NCBI RefSeq assembly: GCF_003790525.1
Contig: NZ_CP033635.1
DNA from: Escherichia coli
Lineage (GTDB): Bacteria; Pseudomonadota; Gammaproteobacteria; Enterobacterales; Enterobacteriaceae
Length of the DNA: 64,000 nt
Reading direction: 5' to 3' (one strand)
In this document: in pieces, positions 593 through 62,700 of the stretch
Position numbering within the stretch: the first letter of the stretch is position 1
How the letters are laid out: every line of letters begins with the position of its first letter
Position numbers and translations under genes: made by a program
The notes under the pieces: model-generated
Seen by the model: the letters and a program-made list of their open reading frames with translations, nothing else
Told to the model about the DNA's origin: nothing
Database searches by the model: none

Positions 593-2740
593 ATGAAAAA
601 AGTCGTCACGGTTTGCCCCTATTGCGCATCAGGTTGCAAAATCAACCTGGTCGTCGATAACGGCAAAATCGTCCGGGCGGAGGCAGCGCAGGGGAAAACC
701 AACCAGGGTACCCTGTGTCTGAAGGGTTATTATGGCTGGGACTTCATTAACGATACCCAGATCCTGACCCCGCGCCTGAAAACCCCCATGATCCGTCGCC
801 AGCGTGGCGGCAAACTCGAACCTGTTTCCTGGGATGAGGCACTGAATTACGTTGCCGAGCGCCTGAGCGCCATCAAAGAGAAGTACGGTCCGGATGCCAT
901 CCAGACGACCGGCTCCTCGCGTGGTACGGGTAACGAAACCAACTATGTAATGCAAAAATTTGCGCGCGCCGTTATTGGTACCAATAACGTTGACTGCTGC
1001 GCTCGTGTCTGACACGGCCCATCGGTTGCAGGTCTGCACCAATCGGTCGGTAATGGCGCAATGAGCAATGCTATTAACGAAATTGATAATACCGATTTAG
1101 TGTTCGTTTTCGGGTATAACCCGGCGGATTCCCACCCAATCGTGGCGAACCACGTAATTAACGCTAAACGTAACGGGGCGAAAATTATCGTCTGCGATCC
1201 GCGCAAAATTGAAACTGCGCGCATTGCTGACATGCACATTGCATTGAAAAACGGCTCGAACATCGCGCTGTTGAATGCGATGGGCCATGTCATTATTGAA
1301 GAAAATCTGTACGACAAAGCGTTCGTCGCTTCCCGTACAGAAGGCTTTGAAGAGTATCGTAAAATCGTTGAAGGCTACACGCCGGAGTCGGTTGAAGATA
1401 TCACCGGCGTCAGCGCCAGTGAGATTCGTCAGGCGGCACGGATGTATGCCCAGGCGAAAAGCGCCGCCATCCTGTGGGGCATGGGTGTAACCCAGTTCTA
1501 CCAGGGCGTGGAAACCGTGCGTTCTCTGACCAGCCTCGCGATGCTGACCGGTAACCTCGGTAAGCCACATGCGGGTGTAAACCCGGTTCGTGGTCAGAAC
1601 AACGTACAGGGTGCCTGCGATATGGGCGCGCTGCCGGATACGTATCCGGGATACCAGTACGTGAAAGATCCGGCTAACCGCGAGAAATTCGCCAAAGCCT
1701 GGGGCGTGGAAAGCCTGCCTGCTCATACCGGTTATCGCATCAGCGAGCTGCCGCACCGCGCAGCGCATGGTGAAGTGCGTGCCGCGTACATTATGGGCGA
1801 AGATCCGCTACAAACTGACGCGGAGCTGTCGGCAGTACGTAAAGCCTTTGAAGATCTGGAACTGGTCATCGTTCAGGACATCTTTATGACCAAAACCGCG
1901 TCGGCGGCGGATGTCATTTTACCGTCAACGTCATGGGGCGAGCATGAAGGCGTGTTTACTGCGGCTGACCGTGGCTTCCAGCGTTTCTTTAAAGCAGTTG
2001 AACCGAAATGGGATTTGAAAACGGACTGGCAAATCATCAGTGAAATCGCCACCCGTATGGGTTATCCGATGCACTACAACAACACCCAGGAGATCTGGGA
2101 TGAGTTGCGTCATCTGTGCCCGGATTTCTACGGTGCGACTTACGAGAAAATGGGCGAACTGGGCTTCATTCAGTGGCCTTGTCGCGATACTTCAGATGCC
2201 GATCAGGGGACTTCTTATCTGTTTAAAGAGAAGTTTGATACTCCGAACGGTCTGGCGCAGTTCTTCACCTGCGACTGGGTAGCGCCAATCGACAAACTCA
2301 CCGACGAGTATCCGATGGTACTGTCAACGGTGCGTGAAGTCGGTCACTACTCTTGCCGTTCGATGACCGGTAACTGTGCGGCACTGGCGGCGCTGGCTGA
2401 TGAACCTGGCTACGCACAAATCAATACCGAAGACGCCAAACGTCTGGGGATTGAAGATGAGGCATTGGTTTGGGTGCACTCGCGTAAAGGCAAAATTATC
2501 ACCCGTGCGCAGGTCAGCGATCGTCCGAACAAAGGGGCGATTTACATGACCTACCAGTGGTGGATTGGTGCCTGTAACGAGCTGGTTACCGAAAACTTAA
2601 GCCCGATTACGAAAACGCCGGAATACAAATACTGCGCCGTGCGCGTCGAGCCGATCGCCGATCAGCGCGCCGCCGAGCAGTATGTGATTGACGAGTACAA
2701 CAAGTTGAAAACTCGCCTGCGCGAAGCGGCACTGGCGTAA
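593..2740 (+). CDS. fdhF: Formate dehydrogenase H (selenoprotein, Mo-bisMGD); in-frame UGA at 1010..1012 read as selenocysteine
   Basis: ORFs 593..1012 and 1061..2740 are in the same frame and separated only by TGA; N-terminal CxxC..C Fe-S motif and molybdopterin oxidoreductase-like sequence; combined length 715 aa. Confidence 0.93.
1013..1057 (+). promoter_or_regulatory. Bacterial SECIS stem-loop directing Sec insertion at the fdhF UGA
   Basis: Immediately 3' of the UGA: CACGGCCCATCGGTTGCAGGTCTGCACCAATCGGTCGG can fold into a hairpin with a GGUC apical loop, as in the known fdhF SECIS. Confidence 0.8.
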
Positions 2741-2752
2741 TACAGTCCTTTC

Positions 2753-2783
2753 TACAGCCTCCTTTCGGAGGCTGTTTTTTTAT
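2753..2783 (+). terminator. Rho-independent terminator after fdhF
   Basis: ACAGCCTCCtttcGGAGGCTGT stem followed by a T7 run. Confidence 0.8.
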
Positions 2784-2833
2784 CCATTCGAACTCTTTAT
2801 ACTGGTTACTCCCTACCCAATCGTATTATCAAA

Positions 2834-3523
2834 ATGAAAAAAATTATCGCATTGATGTTGTTTTTGACATTCTTTGCCCACGCGAACGACTCCGAGCCTG
2901 GCAGCCAGTATTTAAAGGCAGCAGAGGCTGGGGACCGACGCGCACAATATTTTCTTGCCGACAGCTGGTTTAGCTCCGGCGATTTGAGCAAAGCCGAATA
3001 TTGGGCACAGAAAGCCGCCGACAGCGGTGATGCTGATGCCTGCGCGCTGTTAGCGCAGATCAAAATCACCAATCCGGTCAGTCTGGACTATCCACAAGCA
3101 AAAGTTCTTGCAGAGAAAGCGGCGCAAGCGGGCAGTAAAGAAGGTGAAGTAACGCTGGCGCATATTCTGGTAAATACGCAAGCGGGTAAACCGGATTATC
3201 CAAAGGCGATTTCGCTGTTAGAAAACGCCTCGGAAGATCTGGAGAACGACTCTGCCGTCGATGCCCAAATGCTGCTTGGTTTGATTTACGCCAACGGCGT
3301 GGGCATTAAGGCCGACGATGACAAGGCAACCTGGTATTTCAAACGCAGCTCTGCGATTTCCCGAACCGGTTATTCCGAGTACTGGGCGGGAATGATGTTC
3401 TTAAACGGTGAAGAAGGTTTTATCGAGAAGAACAAACAGAAGGCGCTGCACTGGTTGAATCTGAGCTGTATGGAAGGGTTTGATACCGGGTGTGAAGAGT
3501 TTGAAAAATTAACTAACGGTTAA
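2834..3523 (+). CDS. yjcO: Sel1/TPR-like repeat periplasmic protein
   Basis: 229 aa ORF with signal peptide and repeated Sel1-like A-x-A-Q/YxLA motifs; position between fdhF and gltP. Confidence 0.85.
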   Translation: MKKIIALMLFLTFFAHANDSEPGSQYLKAAEAGDRRAQYFLADSWFSSGDLSKAEYWAQKAADSGDADACALLAQIKITNPVSLDYPQAKVLAEKAAQAGSKEGEVTLAHILVNTQAGKPDYPKAISLLENASEDLENDSAVDAQMLLGLIYANGVGIKADDDKATWYFKRSSAISRTGYSEYWAGMMFLNGEEGFIEKNKQKALHWLNLSCMEGFDTGCEEFEKLTNG

Positions 3524-3675
3524 TGTAGGCCTGATAAGACGCGTTAATCGTCGCATCAGGCGTTGATGTCGGATGCGGCGTAAACGCCTTATCCGACCTA
3601 CAAAATCACGCTAAATCAGGCTATTGCGCTGTCTGACGTAGGCCTGATAAGACGCGGCAAGCGTCGCATCAGGCA
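3524..3675. repeat. REP/BIME cluster (palindromic units)
   Basis: Repeated GTAGGCCTGATAAGACGCG...CGCATCAGGC and GCCGGATGCGGCGTAAACGCCTTATCCG units in inverted orientation. Confidence 0.85.
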
Positions 3676-14103: not shown

Positions 14104-14222
14104 TTGCCGGATGCGATCCGGGCAACAAGTCGGAAACGATTTGTAGGCCTGATAAGACGCGACAGCGTCGCATCAGGCATTGATTGCCGGATGCGGCATA
14201 TAACGCCTTATCCAGCCTACAT
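14104..14222. repeat. REP/BIME cluster
   Basis: GCCGGATGCG... and GTAGGCCTGATAAGACGCG...CGCATCAGGC units between acs and yjcH. Confidence 0.85.
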
Positions 14223-19630: not shown

Positions 19631-19911
19631 CCGCGCATACAAAACGGGTGGTAAAAAAGCAAACGATTATCCGGCGATCATAGCGGCTTTTTCAACCGAA
19701 GTTTGCTGCTTTTTTCTCTTTTATTGTCTTGACGATGAAAAACCAGGCAATTGATGCGCAAACGTTATCGTCGATGCGCAAGATTGCAGCGTTATCGAAC
19801 CGTATACCGTTCAGGATTGCGATAAAAAATCGCCTGAGATGACAAAAATATTGCGGCTAAAAAGTGTACTTTTACACTGGCGAAGAAACGCCGGTGACAT
19901 ACAATTAAAGC

Positions 19912-20052
19912 ATCAACACCAACCGGAACCTCCACCACGTGCTCGAATGAGGTGTGTTGACGTCGGGGGAAACCCTCCTGTGTACCAGCGGGATAGAGAG
20001 AAAGACAAAGACCGGAAAACAAACTAAAGCGCCCTTGTGGCGCTTTAGTTTT
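19912..20052 (+). ncRNA. sraL: Small RNA SraL (RyjA), convergent with and overlapping the 3' end of soxR
   Basis: Intergenic ghxP-soxR region ending in hairpin AAAGCGCCCttgtGGCGCTTT plus T-run on the + strand; sequence matches my recollection of SraL; 5' end approximate. Confidence 0.5.
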
Positions 20053-20509
20053 GTTCATCTTCCAGCAAGCGTGCGCCTGTGCCTTCTTCTCCTAAGCGGT
20101 CGCCCGGGTTACGCAATGGGCAATCACTGCGCGAAAGGCAGCCACAACCAATACATCCGTCCAGTTCGTCACGCAGCGCCACTAAGGTATGAATGCGCCG
20201 ATCCAACTCTTCTCGCCATTGGGACGAAAGCTGTTTCCACTCTTTCGCACTTAATGTATGCCCTTCGGGCAACACGCCAAATGCTTCACGAATGGTCGCC
20301 AGCGGAATGCCAATACGCTGAGCAATTTTGATGATTGCGACATATCGCAACACATCACGTTTATATCGCCGCTGATTGCCACTATTACGGATACTGCTAA
20401 TCAACCCTTTGCTTTCATAGAAATGCAGCGCCGATACCGCCACACCGCTGCGTTTTGCCACTTCGCCGGGGGTTAGCAGCGCTTTAATGCGGGGTAATTT
20501 CTTTTCCAT
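20045..20509 (-). CDS. soxR: Redox-sensing MerR-family regulator with [2Fe-2S] cluster
   Basis: 154 aa, HTH N-terminus, C-terminal [12 protein letters not shown] cluster motif. Confidence 0.95.
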
Positions 20510-20520
20510 AAATCGCTTTA

Positions 20521-20538
20521 CCTCAAGTTAACTTGAGG
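20521..20538. promoter_or_regulatory. SoxR operator within the soxS promoter
   Basis: Perfect 18-bp palindrome CCTCAAGTTAACTTGAGG between divergent soxR and soxS. Confidence 0.85.
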
Positions 20539-20594
20539 AATTATACTCCCCAACAGATGAATTAACGAACTGAACACTGAAAAGAGGCAGATTT

Positions 20595-20918
20595 ATGTCC
20601 CATCAGAAAATTATTCAGGATCTTATCGCATGGATTGACGAGCATATTGACCAGCCGCTTAACATTGATGTCGTCGCAAAAAAATCAGGCTATTCAAAGT
20701 GGTACTTACAGCGGATGTTCCGCACGGTGACGCATCAGACACTTGGTGATTACATTCGCCAACGCCGCCTGTTGCTGGCCGCCGTTGAGTTGCGCACCAC
20801 CGAGCGTCCGATTTTTGATATCGCAATGGACCTGGGTTATGTCTCGCAGCAGACCTTCTCCCGCGTTTTCCGTCGGCAGTTTGATCGCACTCCAAGCGAT
20901 TATCGCCACCGCCTGTAG
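20595..20918 (+). CDS. soxS: AraC-family superoxide response activator
   Basis: 107 aa double HTH protein. Confidence 0.95.
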   Translation: MSHQKIIQDLIAWIDEHIDQPLNIDVVAKKSGYSKWYLQRMFRTVTHQTLGDYIRQRRLLLAAVELRTTERPIFDIAMDLGYVSQQTFSRVFRRQFDRTPSDYRHRL

Positions 20919-20920
20919 TT

Positions 20921-22507
20921 TTATTGCCCGCGCGTTAACTCCCGCGCGGGTAATTGCTCCATCCATTGCATAAACACCTGCGGCGGCATCGCCTTCGCAA
21001 AGAACCATCCCTGGCAATAGCGCACGCCGCGTTTGCGCAGCCAGTTAACCTGTTCCTCAGTTTCGACGCCTTCAGCGATCGTTTTTAACCCCAGACTGTG
21101 CGCCAGCTCGATGATGTGTTCCGCAATCAAATGACTGGTTTTATGGGTGGTCAGCGTCTCAACAAACGATTTATCGATTTTCAAAATATCGACATTCAAT
21201 GATTTAAGGTTATGCAAGTTAGAGTAGCCAATACCAAAATCATCAATTGCCACTTCGTAACCAGCCTGGCGGAAAGCCAGAATAATTGGTGTCATTTTGT
21301 CGACATCAAGAAATGCATGTTCAGTCACTTCAAATTTAATTTGCTGTGGACGCACCGCGTATTGCTCTGTTTTCTGATTGGTTCGCGCTATCAACCGTGA
21401 CGTATGAAAATCGGAGGCCGACAGGTTAATAGAAACATAGCGATCGGCATGTGTTGCCAGGTATGCGCCCAGATCGCGGAAGACATTATCAATAACATAA
21501 TCAGTTACCTGTCCGATCATCCCCTCCTTTTCTGCCAGCGGAATAAACTCTGCCGGATTCATTACTTGCCCCTGCTCACCAGGCCAACGTAACAATGCTT
21601 CAGCCCCGATACATTTTTCTGTTTTGATATCGATTATTGGCTGGTAATAAAGGCAAAGTTGATGTTTTTCGAGGGCGCGTTGCAATTTGCGTTTGGGAGA
21701 CAAATAGTTTTGTCGAATACGTAGCCAGAGTAATAGCAGAACAAGACTCCCCAAAATACCGGCGGGTAACGCAAAAATAAGATGATTATAAAAATGCGCT
21801 ATAAGACGTTGATATGAAGTCGCAACAATGGCCGCAATTGGGCGTTTTGTCGAATAAACTGTCGCATATAAATAGCCATTTCTTTGTACAGTTAAATCCT
21901 TCAAATGAATCAGTGGAGAAAACGTTGCTGCCGAGGCCTCGTTGCTTAACGAGAAAAAGGTTTTCGTTACCGTATCATATACACCCCATTGCAATGTCGG
22001 ATCATCAGACATCACTTCACTCCAGAAGAGAGGGTTGATGACCGCCACATAATTTCCCCGCTGCATATAGGTCATTTTATAGCCAGAGAAAAAAGGCGTA
22101 TCGCGGTAATAATAGATAGAAACGTTAGGTTCACGCTTATAATCGGCCGGTGCAATCGTATAGCCGTTTACAGGCGCTATCAGCGATGAGCATAAAAAAT
22201 GGTTATCACGGGCATAGATCAATTCATTAATATAAAGATAGCCACGAATAATATTCAACATTCGCTTTTGATGGGCTGGGGTGCAAACTTGCCCCTGATA
22301 GCGTTCAGCTGCATCGCTCACTAAATCTGCCTGACGAATGACCAGCTCAGATTTATCCAACGCCAGCTGAGCAAAGGTTCGGAGCTGATTATTCACTTCT
22401 GATTTTGCCCAAAAGAAGGCAATCCATAGCGACAGAATGATGGGAAAGAGAACTAAAAAGATAATGCCCGGCAACGCCAGTAATTGGTGTCGTGCACGAT
22501 GACTCAT
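20921..22507 (-). CDS. pdeC: c-di-GMP phosphodiesterase with periplasmic sensor (CSS) and EAL domain
   Basis: 528 aa from MSHRARHQ; two TM segments, C-terminal EAL-like domain. Confidence 0.88.
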
Positions 22508-28965: not shown

Positions 28966-29469
28966 ATGAATATATCATATGTGAATAGCAACAAAATGAC
29001 ATCTTTACCTGTTGAGCTAGATGCACTAAATAATAAAGATATCTCTTATTCCAAAGATTTTTCTTATGCCAGAGATTTCTTTTTATATATAGAAACACAG
29101 TTAAAAATTGCAAAAGATTTTTGTAGACCTGGAGAAGAAGTATCAAGTTCTATTGCAAGTACAGTTTTTCATGCATTTATTGATTTAGTTAACAAAATCA
29201 GAGGCAAGAAAGATTGTATGTATATTTGCACACTTTGCTGTTTTGCCGAGGAGGTTAAAGGTGATTATTCTCATTACAGGACCTTTTTATTTGATATTGG
29301 TAATCAATATAAGGTTAAACTTACACAAAGCGGAAAAAAAGAGTTCTCTTTAACATTAGAATTTAACGATACTATAATTGAATCTCAGAAAGTCACAGGC
29401 AATAAGGCAAAGCATATTCTTGAGGATATAGAAATATTCTATCGTAACAAACCCGATACTTATTATTAA
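28966..29469 (+). CDS. Orphan hypothetical protein in AT-rich islet (167 aa; longest ORF from 28927)
   Basis: ORF with strong SD GAAGGAG 8 nt upstream of the in-frame ATG at 28966; AT-rich, atypical codon usage; Cys-rich CMYICTLCC segment; no recognisable family. Confidence 0.45.
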   Translation: MNISYVNSNKMTSLPVELDALNNKDISYSKDFSYARDFFLYIETQLKIAKDFCRPGEEVSSSIASTVFHAFIDLVNKIRGKKDCMYICTLCCFAEEVKGDYSHYRTFLFDIGNQYKVKLTQSGKKEFSLTLEFNDTIIESQKVTGNKAKHILEDIEIFYRNKPDTYY

Positions 29470-29691
29470 ATTTAATAATGGTTAGATGTGCAAAAATTAT
29501 TACTCCACACGAAAAAACAGGGAAAGGAATTCCAGATAATTGGGATAAACTTAACAATAAAAGAACTGACAACCTTTTATTATCCCTCACGTAAAACGAT
29601 GGCATCAAAAAAATCATCTATAAAGCAAGAGTGAAAGCGACGACAGTTTAATTTCACTGCAGGCTGGGTAGCTCCAGCCTGCTTTCCTGCA

Positions 29692-60258: not shown

Positions 60259-60568
60259 AACAATTTCCCTTCATTGAATGAATGGAGATTTACCCAAAAA
60301 CATTTCGGGCGGGATCGAGTATACACAACTAAAGCATGCGAATTACGGCGCGGGTAATTAGTGATGGGGTTTTAGGATAATTGGAATGAATATCAAATAT
60401 AAGCTTCAGATTATATATAAATAACACTAAAAATCATAAGCTTAAAATAAAAATAAAAGTAATTAATCTGCGTATTTTCCGAAATCAATCACGATTAAAA
60501 ATCTATTTTAGGATTAACCTCACGGTATGATTTCCGTTAAATCACAGACAAGGGGATTTATCTGATAA

Positions 60569-60600
60569 AAAATGCCGACATAACGTCGGCATTTTTATTA
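60569..60600. terminator. Bidirectional terminator downstream of pgi
   Basis: AAAAAATGCCGACataaCGTCGGCATTTTTATT. Confidence 0.8.
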
Positions 60601-60611
60601 GGGTTATTTAA

Positions 60612-62261: not shown

Positions 62262-62504
62262 TAGCAATACTCTTCTGATTTTGAGAATTGTGACTTTGGA
62301 AGATTGTAGCGCCAGTCACAGAAAAATGTGATGGTTTTAGTGCCGTTAGCGTAATGTTGAGTGTAAACCCTTAGCGCAGTGAAGCATTTATTAGCTGAAC
62401 TACTGACCGCCAGGAGTGGATGAAAAATCCGCATGACCCCATCGTTGACAACCGCCCCGCTCACCCTTTATTTATAAATGTACTACCTGCGCTAGCGCAG
62501 GCCA

Positions 62505-62700
62505 GAAGAGGCGCGTTGCCCAAGTAACGGTGTTGGAGGAGCCAGTCCTGTGATAACACCTGAGGGGGTGCATCGCCGAGGTGATTGAACGGCTGGCCAC
62601 GTTCATCATCGGCTACAGGGGCTGAATCCCCTGGGTTGTCACCAGAAGCGTTCGCAGTCGGGCGTTTCGCAAGTGGTGGAGCACTTCTGGGTGAAAATAG
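62505..62700 (+). ncRNA. Lysine riboswitch (L-box) in the lysC leader
   Basis: Long structured 5' leader (about 320 nt) upstream of lysC containing AGAGGCGC...TTGCC...GGAGGAGCCAG L-box-like core; aptamer boundaries approximate. Confidence 0.65.

Follow-up and report, generated by a model that had tools for sequence, protein, structure and literature searches.

Gene content of the soxR-soxS locus

The window analysed here is a 64,000-nucleotide stretch of Escherichia coli DNA (contig NZ_CP033635.1), within which two divergently transcribed regulatory genes, soxR and soxS, lie back to back on either side of a short control region (Table 1). The minus-strand protein was assigned to the SoxR equivalog TIGR01950 of NCBIfam, scoring 247.6 bits against a cut-off of 116.9, and it fell below the cut-offs of all other MerR-family models in NCBIfam, including those for CueR (55 versus 147.4 bits) and ZntR (41.2 versus 167.95 bits). 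Its residues 1-154 aligned with SoxR of PDB entries 2ZHG and 2ZHH (E = 1.3e-99) and 152 of 154 were identical to the 2ZHG chain, the substitutions T38S and G74R being the sole differences from the K-12 / PDB 2ZHG protein. Furthermore, residues 119-130 carry the cluster motif CX2CXCX5C, and the [2Fe-2S] ligands of SoxR are Cys119, Cys122, Cys124, and Cys130 (review PMC9909328).

The plus-strand protein matched the SoxS equivalog NF007584 (NCBIfam) over residues 1-107 of 107, with 228 bits against a cut-off of 174, and gave a full-length match (residues 1-107) to SoxS of PDB 7W5W (E = 1.5e-69). It belongs to the MarA/Rob/SoxS subgroup of the AraC/XylS family, is made up of a DNA-binding domain alone (~107 residues), and is identical to K-12 SoxS. 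The soxR ATG on the minus strand ends at position 20509 and the soxS ATG starts at 20595, leaving a gap of exactly 85 bp, and a preliminary description of this DNA, which had placed a divergent soxR/soxS pair on either side of an 85-bp spacer between the start codons, was therefore exact in its coordinates.

At the other end of soxR, an Hfq-binding small RNA, sraL/ryjA, was matched on the plus strand at 19912-20052 (Rfam RF01408, 153 bits). It is convergent with soxR and overlaps the final 8 nt of that gene, the stop codon at 20045-20047 included. A hairpin with a 13-bp stem (20021-20051) lies at the 3' end of sraL/ryjA, just beyond the soxR stop, and looks like a shared bidirectional terminator. 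Elsewhere in the window, Rfam matches above the gathering score were obtained for the selenocysteine insertion element SECIS_2 (1005-1059), for three copies of naRNA4 (3528-3598, 14146-14217, and 48622-48692), for the small RNA STnc430 (60455-60603), and for a lysine riboswitch in the lysC leader (62498-62694).

Table 1. Features of the soxR-soxS locus, in window coordinates
Feature	Position	Strand	Basis and remarks
soxR CDS, 154 aa	20045..20509	-	ORF list and profile match; MerR-family [2Fe-2S] redox sensor
soxR-soxS intergenic control region, 85 bp	20510..20594		Between divergent start codons
soxS -35 hexamer TTTACC	20517..20522	+	Hexamer scan; last two bases are the first two of the operator
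SoxR operator (SoxR box) CCTCAAGTTAACTTGAGG, perfect 9+9 palindrome	20521..20538		Sequence match to published box
soxS promoter spacer, 19 bp	20523..20541	+	Hexamer scan; contains 16 of the 18 operator bases
soxR -10 hexamer TATAAT	20540..20545	-	Hexamer scan; 4-bp overlap with soxS -10
soxS -10 hexamer TATACT	20542..20547	+	Hexamer scan
Candidate soxR -35 hexamer TCGTTA	20563..20568	-	Consensus match only; 17 bp from TATAAT
soxS Shine-Dalgarno-like GAGG	20584..20587	+	Read from the sequence; 7 nt 5' of ATG
soxS CDS, 107 aa	20595..20918	+	Profile and structure match; AraC/XylS-family activator of the superoxide regulon

A SoxR operator fills the spacer of the soxS promoter

The gap contains a perfect palindrome, CCTCAAGTTAACTTGAGG, whose two 9-bp arms are ungapped and meet at a dyad centre between positions 20529 and 20530, with the symmetry ending exactly at the borders. 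The E. coli SoxR box quoted in PMC4411124 consists of the same 18 bases (18/18). The perfect 18-bp palindrome of the preliminary description, its identification as the SoxR operator, and the check proposed for it, namely motif comparison with characterised SoxR operators, were thus all borne out. Within the window the 18-mer occurs once, even with three mismatches allowed (0.01 expected).

Other perfect palindromes with arms of at least 9 bp are scattered over the window. The longest is AAAGCCGGATGATCATCCGGCTTT (12+12, 44096-44119), which lies between the convergent genes ubiA and plsB and looks like a bidirectional terminator. ATTATTAAATTTAATAAT (9+9, 29462-29479) is intergenic, composed of A and T only, and located downstream of tyrB, while CGTTATTGGTACCAATAACG (10+10, 970-989) lies ~15 bp upstream of the SECIS element.

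The promoter hexamers of the gap were located with a scan that allowed spacers of 15-21 bp. A standard promoter scan limited to spacers of 16-18 bp found no promoter in 19900-21100, because the spacer between the soxS hexamers is 19 bp, 2 bp above the 17-bp optimum. The SoxR box overlaps the soxS -35 by 2 bp and ends 3 bp short of the -10, and so fills this spacer. The gap had also been described as holding an unusually long-spacer promoter; this is correct for the 19 bp between TTTACC and TATACT, whereas the 85 bp between the start codons are not the relevant spacer. On the soxR strand, the TCGTTA/TATAAT pair matches the consensus at 9 of 12 positions with a 17-bp spacer.

From the positions of the -10 hexamers we infer that soxS transcription would start ~6-8 nt downstream of its -10, near 20553-20555, and that soxR transcription would start near 20532-20534, inside the operator. 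Since the box lies in the soxS spacer and at the same time just downstream of the soxR -10, one site can activate soxS and repress soxR, and the arrangement fits a role of the SoxR box in soxR autorepression as well. Such a layout has been described: the SoxR site covers the soxR +1, and a single site gives both activation and autorepression (PMC4411124), and the divergent soxR promoter found here agrees with the layout reported in PMC6612552 and PMC4411124. A site for negative autoregulation by SoxS in its own promoter was sought with the marbox/soxbox consensus AYNGCACNNWNNRYYAAAY and up to 2 mismatches, and no match was found in 20400-20700; this consensus is degenerate, and the whole window held 10 matches where 17 were expected.

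The control region is identical to that of K-12

In K-12 MG1655 the soxRS locus (soxR b4063, soxS b4062) has the same gene order, ghxP - sraL/ryjA - soxR <> soxS - pdeC, and its 85-bp gap is base-for-base identical to that of the window, the nucleotide differences from MG1655 numbering 13 in soxR, 9 in soxS, and 0 in the gap. All 9 differences in soxS are silent, one of them changing the stop codon from TAA in K-12 to TAG here. Because the control region is identical, results obtained in K-12 carry over directly to this locus. In K-12, deletion of soxR is reported to abolish soxS induction.

The region from 20000 to 20950 is 100% identical to the corresponding region of E. coli SMS-3-5 and several other strains, where the genes are annotated soxR, soxS, and pdeC; the K-12 annotation likewise names soxR and soxS. 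The window is colinear with the SMS-3-5 record NC_010498.1, in which the record position equals 4645566 minus the window position. When a 95-bp query across the gap was compared with complete E. coli genomes, 5378 of the 5420 matching genomes showed at least 99% identity; for the 951-bp locus, just 756 of 5425 matching E. coli records reached this level.

The two substitutions that set the window's SoxR apart from that of K-12 have been listed together in a levofloxacin-susceptible isolate (MIC 0.016 ug/mL) and also in resistant ones (PMC4317672). This occurrence of T38S/G74R in susceptible and resistant isolates alike makes the pair look like a lineage marker or polymorphism rather than a constitutive mutation.

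In E. coli E138 (NZ_AP022351.1, locus 2211-3065), an IS1-family element, IS1X4, interrupts the soxS -10 hexamer, its insertion point lying directly after ...CCTCAAGTTAACTTGAGGAATTA, and parts soxS from the SoxR box and the -35. Expression of soxS in E138 may depend on the insertion sequence rather than on SoxR. A mobile or plasmid-borne origin of the locus was considered and rejected: nine "plasmid" matches to soxR were all E. coli records of 0.37-4.9 Mb that were predicted to be non-mobilizable. Apparently these are whole or fragmentary chromosomes labelled as plasmids, and they thus give no sign of mobility.

Conservation of the operator beyond E. coli

A scan of bacteria, with one genome per species, for the pattern CCTCAAGN4CTTGAGG, which fixes 14 of the 18 operator bases, yielded at least 120 loci, a biased sample. 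Among the matches listed, at least 12 other enteric species carry the box flanked by homologues of soxR and soxS, one to each side; the enteric taxa represented in these matches are Escherichia albertii, Citrobacter, Enterobacter, Superficieibacter, Klebsiella, Pantoea, and Rosenbergiella. In tblastn alignments of the 12 other enteric loci among the matches listed, the box lies 12-13 bp from soxR in 11 and 52-127 bp from soxS in the 12. Moreover, a 32-bp block, CTTTACCTCAAGTTAACTTGAGGAATTATACT, which runs from the -35 to the -10 (CTTTACC...TATACT), is invariant in 13 of 13 aligned enteric sequences (the window and the 12 listed species), and in these 13 sequences conservation falls off immediately on both sides of it. 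Because the search pattern fixed only 14 of the 32 positions, the finding that neither the central TTAA nor the -35 nor the -10 varies is independent evidence of constraint.

Across bacteria, a TT[GT]ACC -35 (TTGACC or TTTACC) is joined to one arm in the same register at 81 of the 119 usable sites among the matches listed, where chance would give about 2 (2 orientations x 2/256 x 119). A soxR homologue was found within 400 bp at 28 of 121 sites among the matches listed, and in these matches the box adjoins soxR homologues also in Alphaproteobacteria, Vibrio, and Actinobacteria. Seven sites among the matches listed have A-runs and T-runs at their flanks and resemble terminators; together with 31 unclassified sites they are a background of unrelated matches.

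The operator arm next to soxR reads CTTGAGG on the soxR strand (window 20510-20524, minus strand), and contains a GAGG 11 nt ahead of the soxR start codon; nothing else in the short soxR leader resembles a Shine-Dalgarno sequence. It is conceivable, if rather doubtful, that this arm doubles as the soxR Shine-Dalgarno sequence, in which case the operator would be constrained by SoxR binding as well as by soxR translation. If true, such double use could contribute to the enteric invariance of the 32-bp block.

Alternative readings of the palindrome

The palindrome might lack any regulatory function and be symmetric by chance or in a generic way, for example by merely containing an HpaI site (GTTAAC). 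At this scale, perfect palindromes whose arms reach 9 or more are indeed not rare: 0.25 are expected in 64 kb of the window's composition, 14 of 50 mononucleotide shuffles of the window gave such an arm, and the window itself holds four, the SoxR box included. The symmetry alone is only mildly unusual at the 64-kb scale. However, the expectation for a palindrome of this size centred in the 85-bp gap is only 3 x 10^-4, and a chance origin, which we regard as exceedingly improbable, would also have to account for a sequence that equals the published SoxR box (PMC4411124), that is invariant together with the -35 and -10 in the 12 other listed enteric species while the flanks diverge, and that recurs across phyla joined to a -35. 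It is the identity to a characterised operator, the place between the promoter hexamers, and the cross-species conservation that settle the identification of the operator, and not the symmetry itself.

A symmetric sequence could instead act as RNA, either as a terminator or, in the soxR 5' UTR, as a leader structure governing translation, and not as protein-binding DNA. If transcribed in full, the palindrome would give a 7-bp stem with a 4-nt loop (-9.1 kcal/mol, z = -3.5), and one of its arms holds the GAGG that lies 11 nt from the soxR ATG. Yet the site is upstream of the soxS -10 and hence absent from soxS mRNA, and with soxR transcription expected to begin within the palindrome a transcript would include just one arm, leaving a 24-nt leader that is predicted to be unfolded (-0.2 kcal/mol). 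Neither strand has a T-run after the stem and no Rfam family matched in the gap, so that we give a functional hairpin next to no credence. There is as little chance that the site is a DNA operator for a different E. coli member of the MerR family (CueR, ZntR, MlrA, or EcmrR, for example). Regulators of this family all use dyad sites in 19-20 bp spacers (PMC8113463, PMC9909328), and SoxR is weakly similar in sequence to CueR, ZntR, and MerR, but the 18-mer is the SoxR box of the literature (PMC4411124), the neighbouring regulator clears only the SoxR equivalog cut-off, and the box adjoins soxR in the 12 other listed enteric loci and soxR homologues in Alphaproteobacteria, Vibrio, and Actinobacteria.

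Discussion

The locus is almost certainly the native E. coli soxRS control region, in which a MerR-type distortion promoter activated by SoxR drives soxS and SoxR represses its own gene; binding, redox dependence, and distortion are adopted here from published work on K-12, whose control region is identical. No feature of the sequence speaks against this reading. It is an already known, textbook MerR-type promoter of "activation by DNA distortion" and nothing new, in agreement with the preliminary description, which had called the arrangement textbook.

In this soxRS switch, a SoxR homodimer would occupy the operator in either oxidation state of its [2Fe-2S] clusters. While the bound dimer is reduced, soxS would be nearly off, because the length of a 19-bp spacer would keep sigma-70 RNA polymerase from engaging both hexamers in phase. 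The conformation of SoxR would change when the clusters undergo one-electron oxidation by redox-cycling compounds or superoxide, or when they are nitrosylated, and the activated dimer would then kink and under-twist the operator at its dyad centre (the central TTAA). Such distortion would shorten and re-phase the spacer and allow the polymerase to open the soxS promoter, and the SoxS made would activate the superoxide and multidrug-resistance regulon. On the opposite strand, the bound dimer would sit just downstream of the soxR -10 and over the expected soxR start, and since it would cover this start we propose that soxR is autorepressed regardless of redox state.

These steps follow published work. 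The affinity of SoxR for its site is similar in the reduced and the oxidised state, with activation only when it is oxidised, and, reduced or oxidised, the bound dimer blocks the divergent soxR promoter (PMC4411124, PMC6612552). Activated MerR-family dimers kink and under-twist a 19-bp spacer so that the -35 and -10 come to be spaced and phased as in a promoter with 17 bp between them (PMC8113463). According to the review PMC9909328, the crystal structure of SoxR-[2Fe-2S] with DNA shows MerR-like distortion, and the way in which oxidation of the cluster leads to distortion of the DNA is only partly worked out.

Apart from K-12, a close parallel is the soxR-mfsA pair of Stenotrophomonas maltophilia (PMC4411124), in which, as here, the target promoter has a 19-bp spacer with a single SoxR box in it, the box covers the divergent soxR start, and the -10 elements of the two promoters overlap. 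The S. maltophilia box shares 14 of 18 bases with that of the window, and its -35 is TTGACC as opposed to TTTACC here; furthermore, the target there is an efflux pump gene and not a second regulator (PMC4411124). More widely, Tn501 merR/merT, CueR-copA, BmrR-bmr, and EcmrR likewise place a dimer on a dyad in a 19-20 bp spacer, and in such distortion promoters of the MerR family the dimer represses or is inactive without a signal and kinks and under-twists the spacer once activated (PMC8113463, PMC9909328). In contrast to these systems, the signal here is the redox state of [2Fe-2S] clusters rather than a metal ion or drug, and the operator sequence is specific to SoxR.

The locus itself matters only as a correct annotation and raises no new question. 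In synthetic biology, the soxRS switch has found wide use as a redox-inducible promoter. In the cell it controls the response to superoxide and redox-cycling drugs and, via SoxS, contributes to multidrug tolerance through AcrAB-TolC and micF.
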